21,185 nt of DNA from NCBI GenBank assembly GCA_030614005.1, contig JAUWKS010000055.1, positions 1 to 21,185 of the forward strand, written 5' to 3'. Source of the DNA: Candidatus Heimdallarchaeota archaeon. Lineage in GTDB: Archaea > Asgardarchaeota > Heimdallarchaeia > JABLTI01. Position 1 is the stretch's first letter, and the number at the start of each line of letters is the position of its first letter. The notes below the pieces were generated by a model. The model saw only the letters and a program-made list of their open reading frames with translations. It did no database searches and was not told where the DNA came from. Shown here piece after piece: positions 693 to 20,689 of the stretch. The position numbers were made by a program, and so were the translations under genes.

Positions 693-1001
693 TTAGAATC
701 GCACCAAACTCATCGGTAACCACTCTTTATTTCCATCGTTATATTCAATTTTAATGTTTTCACCTTTGACTTTGATTACAGAACCGGGATAGTAGTTTTC
801 TCCACCCTGCCATCGCCCTTCAATAGGAAGCCCTTTTTCTATTCCTATTGGTCTAATATATTCAATAGTTAATATCTCAACTGTTCCCTCATCATAAACC
901 ACATGGATATTCAATTCATCTATTTCTTGAATAGTACAAGCATACCAATAATCATCTTGACGCCAATTTGCTAATACACGGTCACCTTCGGAAACAGTCA
1001 T
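693..1001 (-). CDS. Stand-alone tandem Tudor/Agenet-like domain protein
   Basis: Two ~50-aa repeats: GDRVLANW..DDYWY..TI.EI....HVVYDEG..E.L....IRP and G..IEGRW.GGENYYPG.V..V....IKIEYNDG.KE.L....VR. AGGTGA SD at 1006-1011. Confidence 0.8.
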   Translation of the reverse strand: MTVSEGDRVLANWRQDDYWYACTIQEIDELNIHVVYDEGTVEILTIEYIRPIGIEKGLPIEGRWQGGENYYPGSVIKVKGENIKIEYNDGNKEWLPMSLVRF

Positions 1002-1791: not shown

Positions 1792-1799
1792 TTATTAAA
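1792..1799 (+). promoter_or_regulatory. Putative TATA box for a near-leaderless priL-priS transcript
   Basis: TTATTAAA ending about 20 nt before ATG 1820; no SD upstream of priL. Confidence 0.4.
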
Positions 1800-1819: not shown

Positions 1820-3139
1820 ATGAGGAAAACCGGCTTGATTCCAGATTGGGTTGTGATTAAACGTTTAGATGAAGTCTCTATCCCTCGAGAGAAATTTCAG
1901 ATAGATATGGAAACTTGGCCGCTAATTGCTCGAGAGAGAGTTAACAAGTTTATTCAAGGTGCTCGTTGGTATCCTTCTAAGAGTGCTTCCAGAGGAAGTT
2001 ATGAGCAAGAAATTTATGAAGAATTTGCTGGTCATGGATTACTTAGACTTGCTGCAGCTGATAACACACGTATTATTGGTTGGCTAATTGAGCAAGAAGG
2101 TGATCTTTTCGAGTGGCGTTATCTCCATGCTAAGACTATCCAAGAAAAAGTAGATATTGCCAAGTATTTTTTTGGTGAAGACAAAGTTATTGGTCCGAGA
2201 GATCTTTGGGCACGGTTCAAGATCGATAATAAATATTTCAAGGATTTTAAAATGGGAAATAGACGGACTGGCGCTATGGGATTGCATTTTACCTGTGTTC
2301 CCAAAATTGTTAGCATTCGTTCTGCTCTTTTACGTGATGGTTGGGTTCTTAGTACCGTAGATGATTTCTCCAATGGAGTTAAGGTTGCCTTTGAAGAAAC
2401 CTTGAGGAGAAGAATAAAAGAAACCATCACACGTTTGGATCCAACGACCCGAGAAGCTGTTAAAGAAGTTCAAGAAGAAATTGGTCGGTTAATTCACTCA
2501 ATAGCTTTTGCCAGAGGAAAAGTAGATCTAGAAGATTATAATCTATTCAATCGACAGGATATCTTTCCTCAATGTATGTTAGATTTATATAATATTATTA
2601 TGAGCAAAGGACATTTGAACCACTCCGAAAGGTTTCAGCTTGGATTATATCTAAAACGATTGGGAATGTCAGTGGATGAGCAATTGCGTTTCTGGTATAA
2701 TAACGCAGTTGATAATGCTGGAATGTCATATGAGCAATTTGCACATGGTAATCCAGGATATATCATTAGACACATGTATGGGTTGGCAGGTGGAGAAACA
2801 GACTATGATGCACCTGCTTGCAATAAATTACAGTTTGAATATTATTGCACCTTTATGCATCAATCTGTAGAGGAAATCGATAAACACCTTCGTAAAGAAT
2901 TTAAGAATCCATCAAATCAGAAAGAGAACGCAATTCGACAATTAGAAAGCAAAGTTGTTGATAACAAACCTAGTGAAGCTTGTGCAATACTCTTTAGCCT
3001 AAGATATAACCGAGGTTGTAGACCAATATTTCATCCAATTAATTATTCTACTTATGCAGCAAAAGTAAAGAAAATAATTGTTCTTCCGGAACAAACCAAG
3101 AAGAAAGGATTGCCATCTAAGAAAGATAACAAAAAATAG
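1820..3139 (+). CDS. priL: DNA primase large subunit, eukaryotic p58-like, with 4Fe-4S C-terminal domain
   Basis: FPQC...HLNHSERFQLGLYLKRLG...YIIRHMYG...DYDAPAC...YYCTF...EAC...HPINY (four Cys ligands). N-domain GHGLLRLAA...WLIEQEGDLFEWRY. ATG 1820 preferred over TTG 1817. Confidence 0.92.
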   Translation: MRKTGLIPDWVVIKRLDEVSIPREKFQIDMETWPLIARERVNKFIQGARWYPSKSASRGSYEQEIYEEFAGHGLLRLAAADNTRIIGWLIEQEGDLFEWRYLHAKTIQEKVDIAKYFFGEDKVIGPRDLWARFKIDNKYFKDFKMGNRRTGAMGLHFTCVPKIVSIRSALLRDGWVLSTVDDFSNGVKVAFEETLRRRIKETITRLDPTTREAVKEVQEEIGRLIHSIAFARGKVDLEDYNLFNRQDIFPQCMLDLYNIIMSKGHLNHSERFQLGLYLKRLGMSVDEQLRFWYNNAVDNAGMSYEQFAHGNPGYIIRHMYGLAGGETDYDAPACNKLQFEYYCTFMHQSVEEIDKHLRKEFKNPSNQKENAIRQLESKVVDNKPSEACAILFSLRYNRGCRPIFHPINYSTYAAKVKKIIVLPEQTKKKGLPSKKDNKK

Positions 3140-3154
3140 CTCTGAGGCAGAAAA

Positions 3155-4171
3155 ATGATCCAAGCAAAAAACGATGATAAGAAACAGCCCAAAGTTCCTA
3201 CAGAGCTTATACAAAGATATTACAAAGAGATTTTTGATCCCGGTGATTTAATATCAATAATAGGCTTATCCACCTTCTATCGAAGAGAATTTGCCTTTCT
3301 ACTTAAGGGGAACATCTTTGTGAGAAATATCTCTTTCAAAGACACACAAGAAATGATTCGATATATGTCAAAAAATCCAATTAGACTTTCATATATTGGT
3401 GCTGTCTACGAAACCCCTCCATCAAAACAACACAATATTCAACGAATTAAGTGGGAATCTCGAGAGTTTTGTTTTGATTTAGATATTAATGATTACGACC
3501 TTGTACGAGTTTGTGGTTGCCAAGGAAAAGAACAGTACTGTTCTGAATGCTGGTCCTTGGTTCAAGATGCAGCAGCTTTTCTTGATAAATCCCTTCGAGA
3601 GGATTTTGGTTTCAAGGATATCGTCTGGGTTTTTTCAGGCAGAAGAGGTTTTCATGCCTGGGTTCGTGACCCTATTGCCGGTAAATTGTCACAATTACAA
3701 AGAAACAGCATTGTTAGATATTTAACGTTAATTAAAGATGAAACTCGCACACAAGCCGTTGAAAAAGATTTGAAGAACGTTATACCTTTACGAGATCGTA
3801 TTATTGAGATGGTTGCAAAATCCTTCTTTACACGAGCAACAGATAAAGAACTTCGAGCCGAACCTTTCAAATTTACTGGAAAACAAATTGAAAGATTACG
3901 TTATAACCTCAAAAATAGTTCCCGTCCGTTTCACTTTACTTATGATACAATTTTAGATAGTAAGAAAAATCGCGATAATGTTTTCACACATATTATTAAA
4001 TATCGTTTTCCACGCATTGATAGAAAAGTGTCTATAGATATTAGACGAGTGCTCAAAGTTCCGGGAGGAGTGCAAAGTACAAATGGAAGGATTTGTTGCA
4101 AAGTGGATATAAAGAAGATATACCATTTCTTCCCTGAAAATGCACCTAGTATTTTCGATTATTTCTCCTAA
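3155..4171 (+). CDS. priS: DNA primase small (catalytic) subunit, eukaryotic p49-like
   Basis: REFAF, YIGAVY, catalytic REFCFDLD, Zn motif CGC..YCSECW, FSGRRGFH, and FPRID..V....R.LKVP. 15 nt downstream of priL. Confidence 0.95.
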   Translation: MIQAKNDDKKQPKVPTELIQRYYKEIFDPGDLISIIGLSTFYRREFAFLLKGNIFVRNISFKDTQEMIRYMSKNPIRLSYIGAVYETPPSKQHNIQRIKWESREFCFDLDINDYDLVRVCGCQGKEQYCSECWSLVQDAAAFLDKSLREDFGFKDIVWVFSGRRGFHAWVRDPIAGKLSQLQRNSIVRYLTLIKDETRTQAVEKDLKNVIPLRDRIIEMVAKSFFTRATDKELRAEPFKFTGKQIERLRYNLKNSSRPFHFTYDTILDSKKNRDNVFTHIIKYRFPRIDRKVSIDIRRVLKVPGGVQSTNGRICCKVDIKKIYHFFPENAPSIFDYFS

Positions 4172-8731: not shown

Positions 8732-9286
8732 TTATTGTAACGCTGAACCACAAGTCACACAGAATTTATCCTTAGCGGTTATCTTAGAACCGCAATATGG
8801 GCAGTATCCTTGATCTTGCATATTCTGCATAATTGGAGTAATCTCTATACCTTCAGGTTCACTAATCTTCTTGCTTGCATTTATTGGTGTGGGAGTTGTT
8901 GTTCCAATTGGAGGTTGTCCTTTTACTTCAAACACCACTACTTCACCGCTTTCAGGATCAAATGAAGCTTTTAGTTTTCCTTCTGCTCGTAAATCAACAA
9001 TCATCTCTTTTAGATCACGCTTTTTCATACGGAGTTCTTCACTTAGCTGATTCAGTTGTACTCTCTGGTAGGATTTTAACGCACCTAATACTTTCTCACG
9101 ATTATAGCGATAACTGAGAATATTAGAGATACCGGCAATTAATAGTATTCCACCTGGAATAAACATCCAGTAACTTCCAGGAGTATTTGGAAATCTTACT
9201 GCAATTATGCCCCAGATAATAAAACCGATGCCAAATGATAAGGTCCAGAGATTTCCGCGACCGAATGAACGTTCTATGTAACCCAT
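8732..9286 (-). CDS. Membrane protein with 2 TM helices, PCI-like winged helix and C-terminal zinc ribbon
   Basis: TM1 LWTLSFGIGFIIWGIIAV, TM2 WMFIPGGILLIAGISNIL; YQRVQLNQLSEELRM...MIVDLRAEGKLKASFDPESGEV (PCI pattern); CPYC...FCVTCG. Start ATG 9286 or GTG 9298. Confidence 0.78.
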   Translation of the reverse strand: MGYIERSFGRGNLWTLSFGIGFIIWGIIAVRFPNTPGSYWMFIPGGILLIAGISNILSYRYNREKVLGALKSYQRVQLNQLSEELRMKKRDLKEMIVDLRAEGKLKASFDPESGEVVVFEVKGQPPIGTTTPTPINASKKISEPEGIEITPIMQNMQDQGYCPYCGSKITAKDKFCVTCGSALQ

Positions 9287-9464
9287 TTTGTAAATCACAT
9301 CAAATAGTTGTAATAATTTCTTTCTAATACTAAATTGCTCATTAAGCTAAAAAAACCTTTACTATCAGAACTTGAAGAAAAGTTGTTTCAATAGTTAGTT
9401 TTATAAGCTAATAAGTAACACAAAAAAAACTGCTTTTAAACGAGAGTATGCTCTGGTTATTATC

Positions 9465-10189: not shown

Positions 10190-11449
10190 TTAATCCAAAA
10201 CTGTCTTACACATACCAACGTATCCTTGTGCTTCAGTCATTGATTTCTGAATTAATGTAATTAAATTTTTATCCTTAACTTTTTCTGCTATTTTAATTGC
10301 TTTTTCAAAAGCGTTTTCACCTTGAGTAAACAAATCTAATGCTTCTTGATATTTTTCTGAGTCTAAATTGAAAATTCCTTGAGACTGATAAAAGTGTCCT
10401 AAGTAATATTCTTGCTGTGCTTCCCATCGGTTCAAAGTTGCTTTATCGTCTTCCTTATTTGGGAATGCTTGAATTGCTTGTTTCAAAAAATCTGCAGCTA
10501 ATTCAAATTGTCTTGTAGCTTTCTTTGCATCATTGAGATTTTTAAGAAATTCATTTGCATTTGCTTCATACATACTTGATTTCAGCATATAAGAGTAGGA
10601 TTCGAACAATTTAGCATTTTTTCCATCTATTGATAGTTTACTTGCTCGTCTATAAAATTTTGAAGCAAGATTGCATTTCTCACTACCTTCGGTAAACTCT
10701 CCATCATTGGAGTGTTTAAAAGCTTCTTTCCACAAAACCGAAGCTTTTTGCTCTACAATCATTCGTACAATGGTTTTCAAAATTTCATTTTGTTCTTTAA
10801 CCCAAACAGAATATGATGGATTGTAATAAGCAGCAATTACAAATGATTTGTAAGCTCCTAAATTCCTTTTTTTTGCTAGGTGTAAATTCTTATTATCAAA
10901 GGCTTGTTCTCCTTCTATTTTTAAGGATAAGCCTTTAGAGAAATTTTCCCGAGCTTTGGCATTATATTTCAGCAGTGGGTTATCATTCTGTTCAACTATT
11001 TTTCCTTCTAAAGTATATGAATTTAGTGCTTCCAATAATGCTTCAATTTGTTTTTCAGGTGGTGTTCCTTTTTTTAATGCAAGACATTCAGAATTTCTAC
11101 CTTTAGAGAAAAGGTCCATTCGTTCAGCTTCTTGTTGATATTCCAATGAGAAACCAGTACTCATTCTTTGGAATCGAGTAAGCATCTTTCCACCTTCCAC
11201 ATATTCAAGAGAAGCACCAGTATAATCTCCCTGGCGGTATTTCTTTTCTCCCTCAATTATTGAAAATACACCCTTATAGAGGTAGAGAGAAATTTTGGCT
11301 ACCTGATCGCCATCGTCATCTTTTTGTTTTAAAGATTTAATCTTCTCATCAATAGAAATGGAAACTTCTTGTAAATTTGTTCTAAATTCATCAAAGAAGA
11401 ACAATTTTTTCTCGGATAGTGAAGCAGCTGCACTCAAACTTCTATTCAC
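10190..11449 (-). CDS. All-helical TPR-like repeat protein
   Basis: Repeating helix pairs with A/G/Y patterning (e.g. GIFNLDSEKYQEALDLFTQGENAFEKAI). An AGGTGA SD overlaps the GTG, so the real start may be TTG 11437. Confidence 0.72.
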   Translation of the reverse strand: MNRSLSAAASLSEKKLFFFDEFRTNLQEVSISIDEKIKSLKQKDDDGDQVAKISLYLYKGVFSIIEGEKKYRQGDYTGASLEYVEGGKMLTRFQRMSTGFSLEYQQEAERMDLFSKGRNSECLALKKGTPPEKQIEALLEALNSYTLEGKIVEQNDNPLLKYNAKARENFSKGLSLKIEGEQAFDNKNLHLAKKRNLGAYKSFVIAAYYNPSYSVWVKEQNEILKTIVRMIVEQKASVLWKEAFKHSNDGEFTEGSEKCNLASKFYRRASKLSIDGKNAKLFESYSYMLKSSMYEANANEFLKNLNDAKKATRQFELAADFLKQAIQAFPNKEDDKATLNRWEAQQEYYLGHFYQSQGIFNLDSEKYQEALDLFTQGENAFEKAIKIAEKVKDKNLITLIQKSMTEAQGYVGMCKTVLD

Positions 11450-11596: not shown

Positions 11597-12784
11597 TTAT
11601 TGATTTGGTATTGTAGTTACAACTCTACTATTACCTGTTAAGTAAACTGTGTGTTCAGATTGAGATACAAAAGATCCCTTAACATCACACAAAGCTGGAT
11701 ATCGCTTTATTTGACCCTTAATTGATAAATCTCTAATAGCAACTTTTGCTGTTGGAATAGAAATTTCATTTGCTATCCATCTTGTTGTAAATGGAAAGTC
11801 TTGATACTTAGCCAAAATCACTTTTCGAGCTTTACGAGAAGCATCTAAGCGTAAACCGATTTGGAATGGCACCAAGTGAAAGATGAAACATCTTCCTTCA
11901 TCAGGATGAATGCTTCCTGTTCCTGATGTGGCGAAAGTCTCTATGGCAAAAGCTTGTCCTTCTTCTAATTTGAACCCTTTTGTGCCACTAATATTTGGAA
12001 TAGTAATTGGTCCATGTAAAAGATGTTGATCTAACTGATGACCAGTTAGGTCACGTATCGGTCGAAAACCATAAGATCTAATTATTGACTCTATTTCTTC
12101 TCCAAGTCTATCGGTAAAAATACCTGGACGAATCATATCAATGGTTGCTTTTGTTGCTTCTTCAGAAGCTTTAATTAAATCTCCATGATCACTTCCAAAT
12201 GAGACTGTGAAAGCAGTATCTGCTACATAACCATCCATATGAACTCCACAATCAATCTTAACAATATCTCCTTTTTTTATGACAAGATCATCATTAGGTG
12301 GAGCAGAATAATGTGCAGCAATATTATTAATAGAAACGTTTAATGGAAAAGCCCATTTTCCACCTAATTCAACAATCTTAGCTTCTCCTGCTTCACATAA
12401 TTCTAAGACTGAAGCACCAACTTTCACTTTCTTTCTTAGCAATTCTTTCACTTTAATTGAAATTTCTCCTGCTTGGAGGTATTTCTCTAAAGGTCCTGCT
12501 TCTTCTGATTTTCCTACAGATTTCTTCTTCTTAACAACTTTTTTAGGTGCAACTTTCTTTGCAACAGTCTTTTTAGCAGTAGATTTTGATGCGGGCTTTA
12601 CTGCTGTTTTCTTACTAACGGTTTTTTTAGTTGCTAATTTCGTAGTTGATTTTTTTGCAGCAGGCTTTTTTCTAGTAGTGCTTTTCTTAGTTACCTTTGA
12701 GCTTGCAGTCGCTTTTTTAGCAGTTGCTTTTTTACTTGAAGTGGATTTCTTCTTTGGGGGTGGATTTTTACTATATTTGGACAT
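11597..12784 (-). CDS. map: Type II methionine aminopeptidase with Lys-rich N-terminal extension
   Basis: AAHYS, KIDCGVH, YVADTAF, TGH, AIETF and QSEHT metal-ligand motifs, plus the type II helical insertion (PFTTRW...YPAL). Confidence 0.95.
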   Translation of the reverse strand: MSKYSKNPPPKKKSTSSKKATAKKATASSKVTKKSTTRKKPAAKKSTTKLATKKTVSKKTAVKPASKSTAKKTVAKKVAPKKVVKKKKSVGKSEEAGPLEKYLQAGEISIKVKELLRKKVKVGASVLELCEAGEAKIVELGGKWAFPLNVSINNIAAHYSAPPNDDLVIKKGDIVKIDCGVHMDGYVADTAFTVSFGSDHGDLIKASEEATKATIDMIRPGIFTDRLGEEIESIIRSYGFRPIRDLTGHQLDQHLLHGPITIPNISGTKGFKLEEGQAFAIETFATSGTGSIHPDEGRCFIFHLVPFQIGLRLDASRKARKVILAKYQDFPFTTRWIANEISIPTAKVAIRDLSIKGQIKRYPALCDVKGSFVSQSEHTVYLTGNSRVVTTIPNQ

Positions 12785-14928: not shown

Positions 14929-16755
14929 TCAAACAATACGACCAAATTCCTTCTCTAAATCCTTTTCAGTTATGCGTATAATTGTTGGTCGCCCATGTGG
15001 ACAAGTGAATGGTTGCTTGCAAGCACTTAATTGTTCCAAAATTGCTATTGTTTTCTCAATAGATACGGGATCTCCACTCCTTACGACCGAATGACATGCC
15101 ATTGTTTTAAGTATGAGGTCCAATCGTTCATTAACATCAGGGATATTTGCGACATCTTTTCTCATTTCATCAATTAGATTTTTGATATCCTCTGTGGTTT
15201 TAAGCAAATCCATTACAACAGGCAACCGACGAATGATGAATGTGTTTCCTCCAAAGTGCTCTAAATTAATTCCAACTTTTTCTAATTGAGGAATATTTTC
15301 TTCCAAAAATAATCGTTCTTCTGTGGATAGGTTAAAGGCTATAGGTTGCAAGAGTTCCTGAGTAACAAAATTTGCATTATGATATAATTCAAGTAAATGT
15401 TCATACATAATTCTTTCATGAGTAGCATGGATATCTACTACTGCTATACCTTCGCTAGATTCACACAAAATATAGAGGAGATGTGCTTGCCCTAATGGTC
15501 GTATCCAAAAAGTATCTGATAAAGCAACGGCAGTAGGAGAAATGACAAGTGCGCTTGTTTCGTTTAAAACTGAAGAACTCTCATCAAACCTTAATTTTGT
15601 ATCTACACTGCTTATCGGTTTCAATAGTGCTGAAGATTTCCCATTTGATTGAGGAGTAATTGTTGTATCACTAACTGTGCCATCCAATCTAGTTTGGGCA
15701 CTTGCAGCAACACTTGAAGAGCTTTTTAGTAATCCTTTACTTTCACGCCATAGTTCATTGTTTTCTAAAGTGTGAGTTATTGCTTCTTGTACAATATCAT
15801 ATATTTCTCTACTTTCACTAAATCTGACTTCACGTTTAGTAGGATGGATATTTACATCTACTTTTGAGCTTTCGATGTTGATATTTAATAATGTAACAGG
15901 ATAGCGATGTTTCATCAAGAGTGTTTTGTATGCTTCTTCTATTGCTTCAGAAATAGTTTTGCTACGAATATATCGCTTGTTTACATAGAGCATTTCATGA
16001 TCTCGAGATGCTCGAGAGAGACTCGGTGCAGAAGTAAAACCAGTGATTTGAATGCCATCTTTTTCGAAATTTACCGGGAGCATCTGTTTTGCGAAATCTG
16101 CCCCAAATATTGATATGAAAGGTTCTATTGGATTTGAACTTCTGGGGCTATTAAGTAAAGTTGCTTTATTATGTTGTAATTTAAAGTGAATTTCCGGATG
16201 AATTAATGCTTGCCGATTAGCTATTTCCATTATGTGACCTAATTCTGTTGTAGGTGTTTTCATGAATTTCTTTCTAGCAGGAACATTGTAGAATAAATTC
16301 CTTATAATAATAGATGTACCAACTGAGCATTCCCGTTCTTCAATGAGTTCTAGATTTCCACCTTTTATTCGAACAATTGTTCCAGTGAGAGCGTTTTCTT
16401 CTCGAGTAATTATTTCCATCATTGAAACAGAAGCAATGCTTGCCAAAGCTTCCCCACGGAACCCTAATGAGGCGATACTATCTAAATCCTCAATTGCTTT
16501 TAGCTTACTTGTTGTATGTGATTTCCAAGCTAAAGCAGCATCCTGAGAATTCATTCCAATACCATTATCAATCACCCGTATCAGATCTAATCCATATCCC
16601 TCAATGAATATGGAAATCTCTGTAGCTTGAGCATCAATAGAATTTTCTACTAACTCTTTTACTACTGAGGCAGGACGCTCTACTACTTCTCCTGCAGCAA
16701 TTTTATTGATTGTTTTTTGATCTAATTGAACGATGATTCTCTTTTTTTTACTCAC
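14929..16755 (-). CDS. mutL: DNA mismatch repair endonuclease MutL
   Basis: NKIAAGEVVERPASVVKELVENSIDA, DNGIG, TSK, GFRGEAL, DVNIHPTKREV; C-terminal DIHATHERIMYE, ACH and CPHGRP. Confidence 0.97.
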   Translation of the reverse strand: MSKKKRIIVQLDQKTINKIAAGEVVERPASVVKELVENSIDAQATEISIFIEGYGLDLIRVIDNGIGMNSQDAALAWKSHTTSKLKAIEDLDSIASLGFRGEALASIASVSMMEIITREENALTGTIVRIKGGNLELIEERECSVGTSIIIRNLFYNVPARKKFMKTPTTELGHIMEIANRQALIHPEIHFKLQHNKATLLNSPRSSNPIEPFISIFGADFAKQMLPVNFEKDGIQITGFTSAPSLSRASRDHEMLYVNKRYIRSKTISEAIEEAYKTLLMKHRYPVTLLNINIESSKVDVNIHPTKREVRFSESREIYDIVQEAITHTLENNELWRESKGLLKSSSSVAASAQTRLDGTVSDTTITPQSNGKSSALLKPISSVDTKLRFDESSSVLNETSALVISPTAVALSDTFWIRPLGQAHLLYILCESSEGIAVVDIHATHERIMYEHLLELYHNANFVTQELLQPIAFNLSTEERLFLEENIPQLEKVGINLEHFGGNTFIIRRLPVVMDLLKTTEDIKNLIDEMRKDVANIPDVNERLDLILKTMACHSVVRSGDPVSIEKTIAILEQLSACKQPFTCPHGRPTIIRITEKDLEKEFGRIV

Positions 16756-16974: not shown

Positions 16975-17982
16975 ATGGCTTGGATTTATGGTTTAGCAAT
17001 ATTTCTTGGAGTGTTATCATATTCCATGCTAAATGTTGGGATGGGATTACAAAAGAAAGGAGCAGAGTCCCTTCCAAAAATCGAAAAGCAAAAGGTTTGG
17101 CAGAACTTAAAAAATTTCTTTACAAACAAAACTTGGTTATTGGGATTTTTATTAGTACAATCTCAATGGATTTTATTAACAATGGCATTAGATTTTGCCC
17201 CTATTTCAATTATTACTCCACTGATGAGCTTTGGTATGGTAGCCTTGGTCATTTTTTCGTTTTTCTATCTAAAGGAATCGATTTCTTTTGTAGAAATAAT
17301 GGGTATTATAGCAATAATAATTGGTATAGTAATTTTAGGTTTAACCAATCCCGAGGAAGAGGTTCTCTATACGCTCAATGAAACAATAGAACGGTTTTCA
17401 AGCACCTGGTCTATTGTCTTTCTAGTAATTATTTTTGTTATTTCCATCGGATTAATTCTATTATCTATTCTCAGAAAATACAAAAACGCTGATATATTAT
17501 TTGGGATTTCTGCAGGGATTACTGATGCTTTAGGAGCAATTCTTCTTAAAGCATTAATGAGCGGAGCGGATTTTCGAGATAAAACAATTGTTAATGATTC
17601 TGTTACAAATTGGGTTTGGTGGTTCTTCATGTTTACTATGATAATATTTAATGGCACTGCCACCATTTATCTACAGGTTGCTTATCAACGCGGCAAAGCA
17701 GTTATTGTTGCACCAATTTTTGGTGTGCTCGCAATGATTGTTCCTGTGTTTGCTGGAATAATTATTTTTAGTGATTGGGCAATTTTTGTTGAGCAAAATA
17801 TGATTGGAAAAATGCTTTTGAAAATAGCCGCATTTGTAATAATTATTGCTGGTGCGGTTGTTCTTTCAATAAAAAGTGCTAGAACTCAAAAGAAAGAAAA
17901 TGGAGAGAACCCACCAGAAGAATATCAACCTCTAGTGAAAGGTCTAGAAGAAATGGAATATGCTAAAAAAAGCATAGATTAG
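16975..17982 (+). CDS. DMT-superfamily transporter, NIPA (Mg2+ transporter)-like
   Basis: GMGLQKKG, W..GF, ALDFAPISIITPL, FYLKE, G.I.II.G and YQRG.AV...PIF motifs; about 9 TM helices. Confidence 0.82.
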   Translation: MAWIYGLAIFLGVLSYSMLNVGMGLQKKGAESLPKIEKQKVWQNLKNFFTNKTWLLGFLLVQSQWILLTMALDFAPISIITPLMSFGMVALVIFSFFYLKESISFVEIMGIIAIIIGIVILGLTNPEEEVLYTLNETIERFSSTWSIVFLVIIFVISIGLILLSILRKYKNADILFGISAGITDALGAILLKALMSGADFRDKTIVNDSVTNWVWWFFMFTMIIFNGTATIYLQVAYQRGKAVIVAPIFGVLAMIVPVFAGIIIFSDWAIFVEQNMIGKMLLKIAAFVIIIAGAVVLSIKSARTQKKENGENPPEEYQPLVKGLEEMEYAKKSID

Positions 17983-17989
17983 AAAACTG

Positions 17990-20689
17990 CTATTTCAAAT
18001 TTTCATGACTTCTTTTTACGCGTTCAAGAATTTGATTGAGCTTATTCATAGCTTCTAAAGGAGTGAGGTTATCTATTTCTAGCTCTTTTAGCTCTTCAAT
18101 GATTTCTTCATTAATTCTATCTTTTTCGTCACGCTGAGATTGGTTAAAGATGCTTTTTGTTAAAGCAATGTTAGTATCAGTGTTTTTAGTACCGTCGGCT
18201 ACCAATCCAAACAAATCAGTTTGAATTGAACCAAGTTTAGGTAAATCTTTTCCGAGAGCAGTTTCATCAGACCCGTTTGACTGTAATTCGAGATAGTGCA
18301 GAATTTCTTTTGCACGACTTATGACGGCGTCAGGCATACCAGAAAGTTTTGCTACTTGAATTCCATAGCTTTTATCAGTCCCACCAGGAATGATTTTATG
18401 CAAGAAAAGTATCTGGTCATCCTTTTTCTTTACTTGAACACTATAGTTCTTCACTCGTTCAAGATATTGCTCGAGATTAATTAGTTGGTGATAATGAGTT
18501 GCAAATAATGTCTTTGAGCCTAAATTCTTGGAATTGTGAATGTACTCAGCTACAGCCCAAGCGATGCTTACACCATCATAGGTTGAAGTGCCACGACCGA
18601 TTTCATCTAATATTATTAAACTGCGTTTTGTTGCATTGTTAAGAATATTAGCAGTTTCATTCATTTCAACTAAGAAAGTAGATAGACCTTTTGAAATATC
18701 ATCAGAAGCACCAATTCGAGTAAAAATCCGATCAACAACACCGATAGTTGCTTTATCAGCAGGAACGAAACAACCTATTTGAGCCATCAGAGTAATTAAT
18801 GCTACTTGCCGGATATAGGTAGATTTACCACTCATATTTGGACCGGTAATAATCAATAATTGATCCGATTTATTATTCATTTTAGAATCATTAGGAATAA
18901 ATGGTTGATCAAGAAGCATTTTTTCTACTACTGCGTGACGTCCATTTTTGATTTCAAGTTTGTATGAGTTATTTACTATCGGTCTAACATAAGCATTATT
19001 TCGAGATACTTCTGCAAAAGTAGTTAAACAATCTAACTCAGAAATTTTTTCAGCATTAATGAGAATTTTGCCAATATCATCATGAACTTTGTCACGAATT
19101 TCACCAAAGAGCTTGTATTCTAGATCACTAATTTGATCCTTAGCGGTGAGTATTTTAGCTTCATATTCTTTCAGTTCGGAAGTAAAATAACGTTTACCAT
19201 TCGTTACCTCTTGTTTTTGAACGTAATTTTTTGGGACCAAATTGAGATAATTCTTTCCAACTTGAATGTAATATCCCAGCACTCTATTATATTCGACTTT
19301 AAGTGATTTAATACCTGTTTTTGATTTTTCTTCCAACTCATATTGAATGATCCATTTGCGCCCACCTTCAGAAATTTCGCGAAGAGCATCAAGCTCTTTG
19401 TTATATGCACTTTTAATTATCCCACCTTCTTTCAAATTTGGAGAAGGAGATTCTTTAATGGCACTATCAATGAGCTTAACTAAAGGATCCAATTTATGCA
19501 GTTCTTTGATTATTCTTTTTGGTGCAGCAGTGGTCAATCTTTTCAATATTTTTAAAATCGAAGGAATAATTTTAAGAGAATTTTTTATCGAAATGATATC
19601 TCGAGCATTTGCACGCCTTAAAGAAACTAGACTAGCTAAACGCTCTAAGTCTTGGATGGACTTCATAGCTGTTCGCAAATCCTCTCGAGCAAAAGAATTA
19701 CTAACAAATTCCTCAACGGCATCTAATCGCTCATTGATTATCTTAGGTTCGAGTAAGGGTCTACGAACTGCCCGTCTAATATATCGACCACCCATTGAAG
19801 TACAACTTTTATCGAGAATCTCTACAAGAGTGCCTTTAGAAGTATTATCCCTAACATTTTTAGTTAATTCTAAACTGCGGAATGAAGCAGGGTCAATAAT
19901 CATAAACCCTTTTGTTGAGTATAAGGACAAATGATGAATGTTATCTAGTTTTGTTTTCTGGGTTTCCATAAGATAATCTAAGAGAGCACCTGCAGCAGAG
20001 ATTGCAAGAGGTTTGTCTTCGCAACCATAACCTTCAAGAGTTTTAGTATTGAAATGCTCTGTTAAAAGTTGATAGGCACTATCATAAGAAAAGCGATATG
20101 GTTCCAAATGGGAAATCATTACTCCTTCTAGACAAGTAAAAACATCTTCTGGGAAATTTCCTTTCTCAGGAACTAAACACTCGGTTGGGGAGATACGGTT
20201 TAATTCAAGAATTAGTTCATCCAAAGGAACTCCTTCGATGAAGTGAGTTACTCTGAACTCACCAGTAGAAACATCCGCCAATGCAAGTCCATAATTTTTC
20301 CCTTTCTCAAAAATTGAAATGATATAGTTATTTTCACTCGATTCTAACATAGCACTTTCAGTGAGAGTTCCGGGAGTAAGAATGCGAGTCACGCCACGTT
20401 TAACAAGACCTTTAGCTTCACTTGCATCTTCTAATTGGTCAACAATAACTACTTTATATCCATGCTTAACAAGTGTGGACATGTAACCGTCAACAGCCTT
20501 CGCTGGAACACCAGCTAGGGGTAAACCAGAACGTGCAGTAAGAGTTATACCTAAGATTTTTGCTCCTAATTTAGCGTCGTCGTCAAATAGCTCGAAAAAA
20601 TCACCTACTCGAAATAAGATAAAGCAATCTGGGTATTTACGTTTGAATTTTTGATACTGTCTGAGCATTGGTGTGGACTTTGATGACAT
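17990..20689 (-). CDS. mutS: DNA mismatch repair protein MutS (MutS-I)
   Basis: TPMLRQY, FRVGDFFELF (F-x-E mismatch sensor), GPNMSGKST, STFLVEM, DEIGRGTST, FATHYH, SYGIQVA. GAGGG SD at 20700-20696. Confidence 0.97.
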   Translation of the reverse strand: MSSKSTPMLRQYQKFKRKYPDCFILFRVGDFFELFDDDAKLGAKILGITLTARSGLPLAGVPAKAVDGYMSTLVKHGYKVVIVDQLEDASEAKGLVKRGVTRILTPGTLTESAMLESSENNYIISIFEKGKNYGLALADVSTGEFRVTHFIEGVPLDELILELNRISPTECLVPEKGNFPEDVFTCLEGVMISHLEPYRFSYDSAYQLLTEHFNTKTLEGYGCEDKPLAISAAGALLDYLMETQKTKLDNIHHLSLYSTKGFMIIDPASFRSLELTKNVRDNTSKGTLVEILDKSCTSMGGRYIRRAVRRPLLEPKIINERLDAVEEFVSNSFAREDLRTAMKSIQDLERLASLVSLRRANARDIISIKNSLKIIPSILKILKRLTTAAPKRIIKELHKLDPLVKLIDSAIKESPSPNLKEGGIIKSAYNKELDALREISEGGRKWIIQYELEEKSKTGIKSLKVEYNRVLGYYIQVGKNYLNLVPKNYVQKQEVTNGKRYFTSELKEYEAKILTAKDQISDLEYKLFGEIRDKVHDDIGKILINAEKISELDCLTTFAEVSRNNAYVRPIVNNSYKLEIKNGRHAVVEKMLLDQPFIPNDSKMNNKSDQLLIITGPNMSGKSTYIRQVALITLMAQIGCFVPADKATIGVVDRIFTRIGASDDISKGLSTFLVEMNETANILNNATKRSLIILDEIGRGTSTYDGVSIAWAVAEYIHNSKNLGSKTLFATHYHQLINLEQYLERVKNYSVQVKKKDDQILFLHKIIPGGTDKSYGIQVAKLSGMPDAVISRAKEILHYLELQSNGSDETALGKDLPKLGSIQTDLFGLVADGTKNTDTNIALTKSIFNQSQRDEKDRINEEIIEELKELEIDNLTPLEAMNKLNQILERVKRSHENLK

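Follow-up and report, generated by a model that had tools for sequence, protein, structure and literature searches.

We show herein that two adjoining genes, priL and priS, on contig JAUWKS010000055.1 of Candidatus Heimdallarchaeota archaeon (assembly GCA_030614005.1; 21,185 nucleotides, analysed whole and referred to below as the window) encode a primase that is closer to the eukaryotic p58/p49 primase than to the classical archaeal enzyme. In our reading, to which we give a probability of about 0.92, the pair is the replicative primase of a Heimdallarchaeia-class Asgard archaeon and belongs to the published Heimdall-group (Asgard-eukaryotic) clade, the closest known prokaryotic relatives of Pri1 and Pri2 (p49 and p58). 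A first-pass annotation, made from the letters of the stretch, had already claimed this likeness to p58/p49, and profile scores, the maximum-likelihood (ML) trees of both subunits and the 29 best Foldseek matches now bear it out. The annotation had also mentioned that eukaryote-like primases were noted in some Asgard lineages, and had expected the novelty to be limited. That caution was justified, as the eukaryote-like Heimdall-group primase is already known, and two papers of 2025 describe exactly this enzyme (PMC12770985; PMC12680538).

The first of these papers (PMC12770985) defined the Heimdall-group clade, its three-helix module, the inversion of subunit sizes (PriL larger than PriS) and motif G/S, and reported the enzymology of a Gerdarchaeota enzyme. 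The ePriS and ePriL subunits bound each other tightly, with a dissociation constant (KD) of ~2.7 nM, and priming was Mn2+-dependent and worked best with mixed ribo- and deoxyribonucleoside triphosphates (NTP/dNTP). The primers were short, <=5 nt on M13 and ~9 nt on oligonucleotides, whereas the products of the Pyrococcus and Saccharolobus primases were long. Moreover, the Gerdarchaeota enzyme kept a dNTP-preferring extension activity, and its Fe-S cluster was more stable than that of archaeal-type PriL. The genome of origin, Gerdarchaeota B18_G1, has two additional archaeal-type PriL genes. The second paper (PMC12680538, Nat Ecol Evol) described the eukaryotic-like primase of a 'Heimdall clan', with the same PriL>PriS inversion, helices added around the Fe-S cluster and a conserved priL-priS neighbourhood. 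It proposed that this primase arose before Pol alpha, and reported an interaction between a heimdallarchaeal PriL and the DP2 C-terminal domain in a yeast two-hybrid assay.

Results

Likeness of both subunits to eukaryotic primase

Open reading frame (ORF) listing and translation showed that priL and priS are both intact and lie next to each other on the same strand (Table 1). PriS matched the Pfam family PF01896 at E 2.4e-30 over profile positions 1-162 of 163, with 106.5 bits where the curated cut-off is 26.8, and PriL matched PF04104 at E 1.5e-39 (136.3 bits against 22.4). When compared with all PDB sequences, PriS found human PRIM1 at E 7.7e-44, the match falling into two parts (residues 15-219 and 280-333), whereas the PriS proteins of Sulfolobus, Pyrococcus furiosus and P. 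horikoshii scored only 2e-10 to 8e-9. PriL found eukaryotic PRIM2 only (Xenopus, 4e-18; human, 2e-17; yeast, 1e-10), and no archaeal PriL chain in the PDB was retrieved at E <= 0.01. For both subunits, the likeness to eukaryotic primase is far beyond chance.

Larger collections gave the same order of relatives. In a search of 5.8 billion proteins with PriS, Heimdallarchaeota proteins were 65-100% identical and Borr-, Heimdallarchaeum-, Hermod-named, Hod- and Njord-archaeal proteins 33-45% identical, and eukaryotes came directly after these Heimdall-group Asgard archaea (29-35%, E ~1e-43). None of the best 120 matches was a Loki, Thor, TACK (Thaumarchaeota, Aigarchaeota, Crenarchaeota and Korarchaeota) or euryarchaeal protein. 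An exhaustive HMMER search with PriL returned ~58 archaeal representatives of 410-490 amino acids and then eukaryotic PriL; the representatives sampled were Wukongarchaeota, followed by Brachionus, Fasciola, Oopsacas, Mytilus, Gonapodya, Percolomonas and others among animals, fungi and protists. A word-based protein search with PriL reached close relatives only. The closest homologues of both subunits carry the names Candidatus Heimdallarchaeota or Asgard group archaeon.

Catalytic motifs of PriS

All of the PriS motifs quoted in the first-pass annotation, namely DLDINDYDLVRVCGC...CSECW, REDFGFK, WVFSGRRGFHAWV, FPRID and NGRIC, were found. Catalytic motifs I-III and the four-Cys zinc knuckle are complete, and they aligned with invariant columns. 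Characters were compared among 27 Heimdall-group, 10 eukaryotic and 33 Loki-type Asgard or TACK (Loki/TACK) sequences. The last residue of motif G/S was Gly in 27/27 Heimdall-group and 10/10 eukaryotic sequences and Ser in 33/33 Loki/TACK sequences, while its first residue was Tyr in the Heimdall group and Loki/TACK and Asp or Glu in eukaryotes. In motif II, the Heimdall group shares SGRRG with eukaryotes, whereas Loki/TACK sequences have SGHRG. The distance from motif I to motif II was 50 residues in the Heimdall group, 48 in eukaryotes and 81 in Loki/TACK, the last because of an extra Cys-rich insertion of ~30 residues. The window PriS is accordingly like eukaryotic Pri1 in its short Zn knuckle, its SGRRGxH sequence, the Gly of motif G/S and the motif I-II spacing (50 vs 48), and differs from classical archaeal PriS in each of the last three and in the absence of the Cys-rich residues. 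On the other hand, the tail that follows motif III counts 47 residues in the Heimdall group, 104 in eukaryotes and 95 in Loki/TACK, so that Heimdall PriS is truncated relative to both.

Iron-sulfur cysteines and structure of PriL

The motifs quoted for PriL (GHGLLRLAA, WLIEQEGDLFEWRY, LRDGWV, FPQC, HLNHSERFQLGLYLKRLG, YYCTFMH, EAC and HPINY) were likewise all present. Four cysteines, C252, C334, C343 and C388, are the predicted ligands of a [4Fe-4S] cluster; they are invariant or nearly so in 99 Heimdall-group and eukaryotic PriL sequences, and were aligned in 46/46 Heimdall-group and 21/21 eukaryotic rows of a 93-sequence alignment that also held 26 Loki-type Asgard/TACK rows. In this alignment, the median Cys3-Cys4 spacing was 46 residues (40-66) in the Heimdall group, 40 (40-58) in eukaryotes and 7 (6-12) in Loki/TACK; in the window PriL, C343 and C388 are 45 residues apart. 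The earlier statement that the last Cys ligands lie closer together in classical archaeal PriL is therefore confirmed by the 6-12 residues seen in all 26 Loki/TACK rows. By contrast, the Cys2-Cys3 spacing was 9 in the Heimdall group just as in Loki/TACK, against 13-20 in eukaryotes, and in this respect Heimdall-group PriL is, as judged from the alignment, an intermediate form. Median PriL lengths were 449 (Heimdall group), 527 (eukaryotes) and 352 (Loki/TACK) amino acids.

PriL was modelled with AlphaFold2 from a 99-sequence alignment. The predicted local distance difference test score (pLDDT) was 91.5 overall and 96-98 over the C-terminal domain. Three helices (residues 350-360, 366-380 and 384-396; block pLDDT 96-98) occupy the 45-residue gap between Cys343 and Cys388, where a helical segment of ~40 residues had been proposed. 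This three-helix module is, on the evidence of the model, a eukaryote/Heimdall-specific addition to the C-terminal domain. When the model was compared with the PDB by Foldseek, ranks 1-29 were all eukaryotic PriL (yeast 8foc_B at 8.8e-13, Xenopus and human), and Sulfolobus solfataricus PriL first appeared at rank 30 (E 7e-4). A comparison with human primase had been suggested by the first-pass annotation; made here for PriL, it superposed the C-terminal domain on human p58C (5f0q_A) over 189 columns, with end-to-end coverage, a root-mean-square deviation of 2.4 A and a target-normalised template modelling (TM) score of 0.81. Over the whole PriL chain, TM scores are low (~0.35), a consequence of the flexible link between its two domains.

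Phylogeny of PriS and PriL

The trees sampled the window proteins, the Heimdall group, eukaryotes, Loki-type Asgard loci and named Thermoproteota and Asgard loci (Bathyarchaeia, Nezhaarchaeales, Culexarchaeum, Hecatellales, Thermoprotei, Nitrososphaerota, Thor-, Odin-, Jord-, Baldr- and Promethearchaeia), with redundancy reduced by greedy filtering. The PriS tree (71 rows, 430 columns) was computed by IQ-TREE under LG+C20+F+G4 with posterior mean site frequencies (PMSF), and the PriL tree (97 rows, 493 columns) by ML under LG+C20. The first-pass annotation had named nesting of both subunits inside ordinary archaeal clades as the outcome that would speak against its claim; such nesting was not seen. 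In the PriS tree, the Heimdall group, eukaryotes and one long-branched Asgard row were separated from Loki-type Asgard and TACK sequences with support of 100/100 and in 100% of bootstrap trees, and in the PriL tree the Heimdall group and eukaryotes were separated from the same archaea at 100/100. Eukaryotes formed one clade for PriS (100/100), with the Heimdall group on one side of a branch supported at 93/74, and the 21 eukaryotic PriL sequences also formed a clade (100/98). The window PriS grouped with genomes of its own class in a clade of 9 rows (97/95). The window PriL formed a pair with P0146 (100/100), and this pair belonged to a clade of 7 rows (97/89) that includes Wukongarchaeota. 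One PriL row provisionally labelled eukaryotic, P0262, from a 12-kb ENA contig, was placed within the Heimdall group at the end of a very long branch and is probably archaeal.

A sole primase among archaeal polymerases

The window is contig C43 of a 3.62-Mb genome in 126 contigs that is 90% complete. Neither a second PriS nor a second PriL was found in this genome by Pfam searches or by a six-frame hidden Markov model (HMM) search with Heimdall-type PriL, Loki-type PriL and PriS profiles, and the PriL profiles revealed no extra ORF resembling the PriL C-terminal domain at E<10, a result that also bears on PriX, the third subunit of the Sulfolobales-type PriSLX primase. The second, archaeal-type primase that the first-pass annotation had considered worth looking for was therefore not found by these searches.

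The genome contains two family-B polymerases of ~920 amino acids each. One is PolB1-like, its best PDB match being S. solfataricus Dpo1 (1s5j, E 1e-219), and the other is PolB3-like, with its best match in Thermococcales PolB (E 4e-50). Far weaker matches were given by Pol alpha (1e-16 to 1e-24) and Pol delta. The DP2 subunit of PolD is also present, and besides these PolB1-like, PolB3-like and PolD enzymes the genome held no Pol-alpha-like polymerase. In the absence of such a partner, the eukaryote-like part is the primase alone, and not a member of a polymerase-primase complex. The earlier description of a transitional primase near the eukaryotic ancestor thus holds for the primase but does not extend to the rest of the machinery, in which the polymerases are archaeal. 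The large PolD subunit DP2 (G000:C87:9095-9898, L133) lies in an open frame of 1637 amino acids, which is longer than usual and might hold an intein or an added domain.

Distribution and gene order in Asgard archaea

A PF01896 profile search over 121 Asgard genomes revealed that PriS is bimodal. A short, high-scoring type occurred in ~40 of them, mostly in frames of 276-345 amino acids (a few up to 436), with >100 bits and a profile match from position 1; all 18 sampled genomes of the window's class carried it. The remaining genomes had a long type of 402-562 amino acids scoring 42-80 bits. The first-pass annotation had pointed to an L-then-S operon. This order is indeed present here, but it is nothing special: priL lies directly 5' of priS in most of the 18 long-type loci examined and in many TACK loci too. 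Being common in Loki-type loci, the order is ancestral and no mark of the eukaryote-like type.

Two other features emerged from this survey. At locus L039 (G010:C85), in an Asgard genome of ~0.9 Mb and 77% completeness (family f15), PriS has all the Heimdall-type characters, namely Gly in motif G/S, SGRRG, a motif I-II spacing of 55 and a short C-terminus. Its branch, at the base of the Heimdall-plus-eukaryote side, is very long (2.4 changes/site), and no priL was found beside the gene in the 8.6 kb examined. In addition, ten genomes of families f20, f23 and f25 (G021, G032, G042, G051, G059, G066, G084, G090, G100 and G105) have a second, weak PF01896 match besides the Heimdall-type PriS. This match scores 21-31 bits in a frame of ~375-402 amino acids, and may be an extra paralogue of the archaeo-eukaryotic primase (AEP) primase-polymerase kind.

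Discussion

Alternative explanations

Several points weigh against our assignment of the pair. The window PriS is ~90 amino acids shorter than eukaryotic Pri1 and has a short C-terminus (a 47-residue tail vs ~104); its motif G/S starts with Tyr, not with Asp or Glu; and the Cys2-Cys3 spacing of PriL is 9, as in other archaea, rather than the 13-20 of Pri2. The grouping with eukaryotes holds relative to Loki-type and TACK primases, Euryarchaeota and DPANN (Diapherotrites, Parvarchaeota, Aenigmarchaeota, Nanoarchaeota and Nanohaloarchaeota) being absent from our trees, and the position of eukaryotes as sister to or nested in the Heimdall group is weakly supported (93/74 for PriS, 85/69 for PriL). 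In an approximately unbiased (AU) test, forcing the window PriS alone, a single long branch whose close relatives had been filtered out, to join Loki/TACK cost 18.8 log-likelihood units (p-AU 0.071), and was not rejected at 0.05. Moreover, activity, primer length, the Fe-S cluster and the hand-off to PolD are all carried over from a homologue, and co-transcription and the promoter are proposed from a reading of the sequence. The AU result, the missing Euryarchaeota and the archaeal traits (the Cys2-Cys3 spacing and the Tyr) are also what could be said for an ordinary archaeal primase that came to look eukaryotic through convergence, compositional bias or long-branch attraction. We consider this very unlikely, and it has largely been refuted already: each subunit independently gave the 100/100 split, found in 100% of bootstrap trees, and composition cannot explain shared discrete characters such as a three-helix insertion of 40-46 residues, Gly in motif G/S in 37/37 sequences against Ser in 33/33, and the loss of the ~30-residue Cys-rich PriS insertion. 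The superposition on p58C (TM 0.81) argues in the same direction, and published trees that do include Euryarchaeota and DPANN recover the same Heimdall-eukaryote grouping (PMC12770985).

It might also be supposed that descent ran the other way, the genes having been transferred horizontally from a eukaryote or the contig being eukaryotic contamination of a metagenome-assembled genome. An unrooted tree by itself leaves the direction unfixed, and in our trees the eukaryotes, as one clade, stand beside the Heimdall group as its sister and are not clearly nested in it. We hold such an origin to be very unlikely. The contig is plainly archaeal, carrying SepF, an archaeal XPD and a CDP-alcohol transferase at a uniform G+C content of 32-39%; the genes have no introns, are 15 nt apart and are accompanied by a Shine-Dalgarno-like motif; and the pair is the genome's sole primase. 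It is present in ~40 of the 121 sampled Asgard genomes, in many families, and the diversity within that group is far beyond that of any recent transfer. Its intermediate characters are those to be expected of an ancestral grade rather than of a gene acquired from a eukaryote. A viral or mobile-element origin, in which priL-priS would stand apart from the chromosomal replisome, is suggested by the fact that AEP primases are common on archaeal mobile elements, and can be virtually dismissed: since the genome has no other PriS or PriL, the pair must be its replicative primase, its neighbours are housekeeping genes (XPD, MutL/MutS, SepF and methionine aminopeptidase), there is no compositional break, and a short high-scoring PriS occurs in 18/18 genomes of the same class.

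Comparison with characterised primases

The nearest characterised relative is Gerd_ePriS/Gerd_ePriL of Candidatus Gerdarchaeota archaeon B18_G1; it belongs to the same clade and shares the ligand numbering C252/C334/C343/C388, the YxG form of motif G/S, the larger size of PriL (439 against 338 amino acids in the window), the position of priL directly 5' of priS and the three-helix PriL module. Proteins that follow the published Gerd residue numbering are 65-72% (PriS; P0027, 72%; P0033, 65%) and 56-62% (PriL) identical to the window proteins, although the protein of B18_G1 itself is not necessarily among them. All the defining features of the Heimdall group examined here were seen in the window pair. 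It differs from the Gerdarchaeota pair in that motif G/S reads YIG in the window and YVG in Gerd_ePriS, in a 6-residue offset of the PriS numbering, and in that the window genome lacks additional archaeal-type PriL genes, of which B18_G1 has two.

Human PRIM1 (p49) and PRIM2 (p58) (PDB 4rr2, 5exr and 5f0q) provide the best PDB matches in sequence and structure. As in eukaryotic Pri2, the Cys3-Cys4 gap of PriL spans ~40-46 residues with three helices, and an H-x-x-H-x-x-R segment follows Cys1; the window PriL is, however, ~90 amino acids shorter. Short primers, as made by eukaryotic primase, were seen with the characterised Heimdall-group homologue (PMC12770985). Unlike the eukaryotic enzyme, that homologue prefers dNTPs and keeps polymerase activity (PMC12770985), and the genes are operonic. 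A further difference from the eukaryotic polymerase-primase tetramer is that the window genome has neither the catalytic nor the B subunit of Pol alpha, its polymerases being archaeal.

With classical archaeal PriS/PriL (Loki-type Asgard and Thermoproteota; Saccharolobus solfataricus PriSLX, 1zt2/5of3; Pyrococcus p41/p46, 1g71/1v33), the pair shares the two-subunit AEP organisation, an Fe-S PriL, the priL-priS order, the Cys2-Cys3 spacing of 9 and, probably, polymerase partners of the same type (PolD/PolB). It departs from them in matching their PriS only at E ~1e-9 to 1e-10 and their PriL with no sequence-level PDB match, in the Cys3-Cys4 segment, which in Loki/TACK is 6-12 residues long and has no three-helix module, and in relative subunit size, which is reversed in Loki/TACK (medians, PriS ~416 > PriL ~352 amino acids). 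Classical archaeal primases also make long products, unlike the Heimdall-group homologue (PMC12770985).

Proposed mechanism and implications

A working scheme can be put together largely by analogy with these enzymes. The two genes would be co-transcribed, as their neighbourhood and the homologue suggest, and PriS, the presumed catalytic AEP subunit, would form a tight heterodimer with PriL, the presumed iron-sulfur regulatory subunit, in the manner of Gerd_ePriSL. PriS may start the dinucleotide with the aid of the PriL C-terminal domain, which would hold the initiating nucleotide and the primer 5' end, and in the model the three extra PriL helices would pack around the [4Fe-4S] site as in human p58C. 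Primers would be short, ~5-9 nt if the enzyme behaves like that of Gerdarchaeota, with dNTPs or mixed NTP/dNTP preferred and Mn2+ required. An archaeal polymerase would then take over the primer; PolD is the likeliest candidate, since Pol alpha is missing from the genome and a heimdallarchaeal PriL interacted with the DP2 C-terminal domain in the yeast two-hybrid assay (PMC12680538).

The Heimdall-group primase offers one of the clearest examples of a component of the eukaryotic replisome that gained its eukaryotic form inside Asgard archaea, and is thus relevant to the assembly of the replication machinery of eukaryotes. The window adds another intact example, and a sole eukaryote-like primase next to purely archaeal polymerases agrees with the published order, in which the primase came first and Pol alpha later. 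A bolder proposition has, in our estimate, an even chance of being right. It holds that in this lineage the eukaryote-type primase is the only one and serves polymerases that are all archaeal (PolB1-like, PolB3-like and PolD). The p58C-type three-helix module, and with it a eukaryote-style counting of short primers, would on this view predate the first Pol alpha and would already have been essential by then, and the mixed states would be true intermediates. These states are the archaeal Cys2-Cys3 spacing, the Tyr of motif G/S and the PriS C-terminus, which is shorter than that of either eukaryotes or other archaea, and if the proposition is true, their mutagenesis could order the events of primase evolution. 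Most of this model was proposed previously (PMC12680538); what would be new is the character-by-character ordering and the sole-primase status of the window genome. Our additions are small, consisting of quantified intermediates in the Cys2-Cys3 spacing and C-terminal tail and of a genome that relies on a eukaryote-type primase alone. The pair establishes no new principle. Its value lies in independent confirmation and in a possible expression target, should the Gerdarchaeota enzyme prove hard to handle.

The locus and its surroundings

Coordinates of the features are collected in Table 1. A TTG lies in frame at 1817, one codon 5' of the priL ATG, but all database copies of PriL begin at the ATG at 1820. 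The gene is preceded by a 277-bp AT-rich non-coding stretch (1540-1816) that contains the candidate TATA box, TTATTAAA; if genuine, the box could give rise to a leaderless or near-leaderless priL transcript. The GAGG in the short spacer suggests that priL and priS may be co-transcribed and their translation coupled. No terminator-like hairpin was found between the two genes by an intrinsic-terminator scan, a scan that is not meaningful for an archaeon, and a sigma-70 promoter scan is equally uninformative in archaea.

Table 1. Features of the priL-priS locus, in window coordinates. The TATA box and Shine-Dalgarno-like motif are candidates read from the sequence.
Feature	Position	Strand	Remarks
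TTATTAAA, candidate archaeal TATA box	1792..1799	+	21-28 nt 5' of the priL ATG
priL	1820..3139	+	439 amino acids from ATG; ORF, Pfam PF04104, PDB matches, ML tree, AlphaFold2 model
Four predicted [4Fe-4S] cysteine codons	2573..2983 (span)	+	C252, 2573-2575; C334, 2819-2821; C343, 2846-2848; C388, 2981-2983 (ATG numbering)
Three-helix module, residues 350-396, Cys3-Cys4 segment	2867..3007	+	AlphaFold2 helices; not in Loki/TACK PriL
GAGG, Shine-Dalgarno-like	3144..3147	+	7 nt before the priS ATG, within the 15-nt spacer
priS	3155..4171	+	338 amino acids; ORF, Pfam PF01896, human PRIM1 match, ML tree
Motif G/S, Y80-I81-G82	3392..3400	+	YxG, Heimdall-group form; 26 residues before D108
Motif I, DLD (D108, D110), then short Zn knuckle (C120, C122, C129, C132)	3476..3550	+	
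Motif II, SGRRGFH (S161-H167)	3635..3655	+	Arg-Arg form as in eukaryotes
Motif III, catalytic Asp D289 in FPRID	4019..4021	+	Aligned to the human FPRLD segment

The neighbours of the pair are genes for SepF, an XPD helicase convergent with priS, a CDP-alcohol phosphatidyltransferase, methionine aminopeptidase, MutL and MutS, and the G+C content is even across the window. Several of the other proteins have domains of note. A stand-alone protein of 102 amino acids (693-1001, minus strand) gave weak, sub-threshold matches to several eukaryotic Tudor/Agenet families (Tudor_3, Agenet and Tudor_5; E ~1e-6), which points to a tandem Tudor-like protein in an archaeon. The M24 methionine aminopeptidase (11597-12784, minus strand; PF00557, E 6e-32) has a Lys-rich N-terminal extension of ~90 residues; this extension gives a weak match to the histone-H1-like HC2 family and resembles the N-terminus of eukaryotic MetAP2. 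In a protein of 419 amino acids (10190-11449, minus strand), a DUF2204 nucleotidyltransferase match (E 2e-4) is accompanied at the C-terminus by a sub-threshold match to MIT (E 4e-4), a domain typical of eukaryotic proteins associated with the endosomal sorting complex required for transport (ESCRT). A further protein, of 188 amino acids (8732-9298, minus strand), has a DUF308 membrane repeat, a PCI match lying just above the cut-off (E 4e-5) and, at its C-terminus, a zinc ribbon, an odd combination for the eukaryote-signature PCI domain. Finally, MutL (14929-16755, minus strand) and MutS1 (17990-20689, minus strand), the latter with all five MutS domains, are full-length and of bacterial type, and a gene for a eukaryote-like NIPA magnesium transporter (16975-17982, plus strand) sits between them; they make up a complete mismatch-repair pair in an Asgard genome, ~11 kb from the primase operon.

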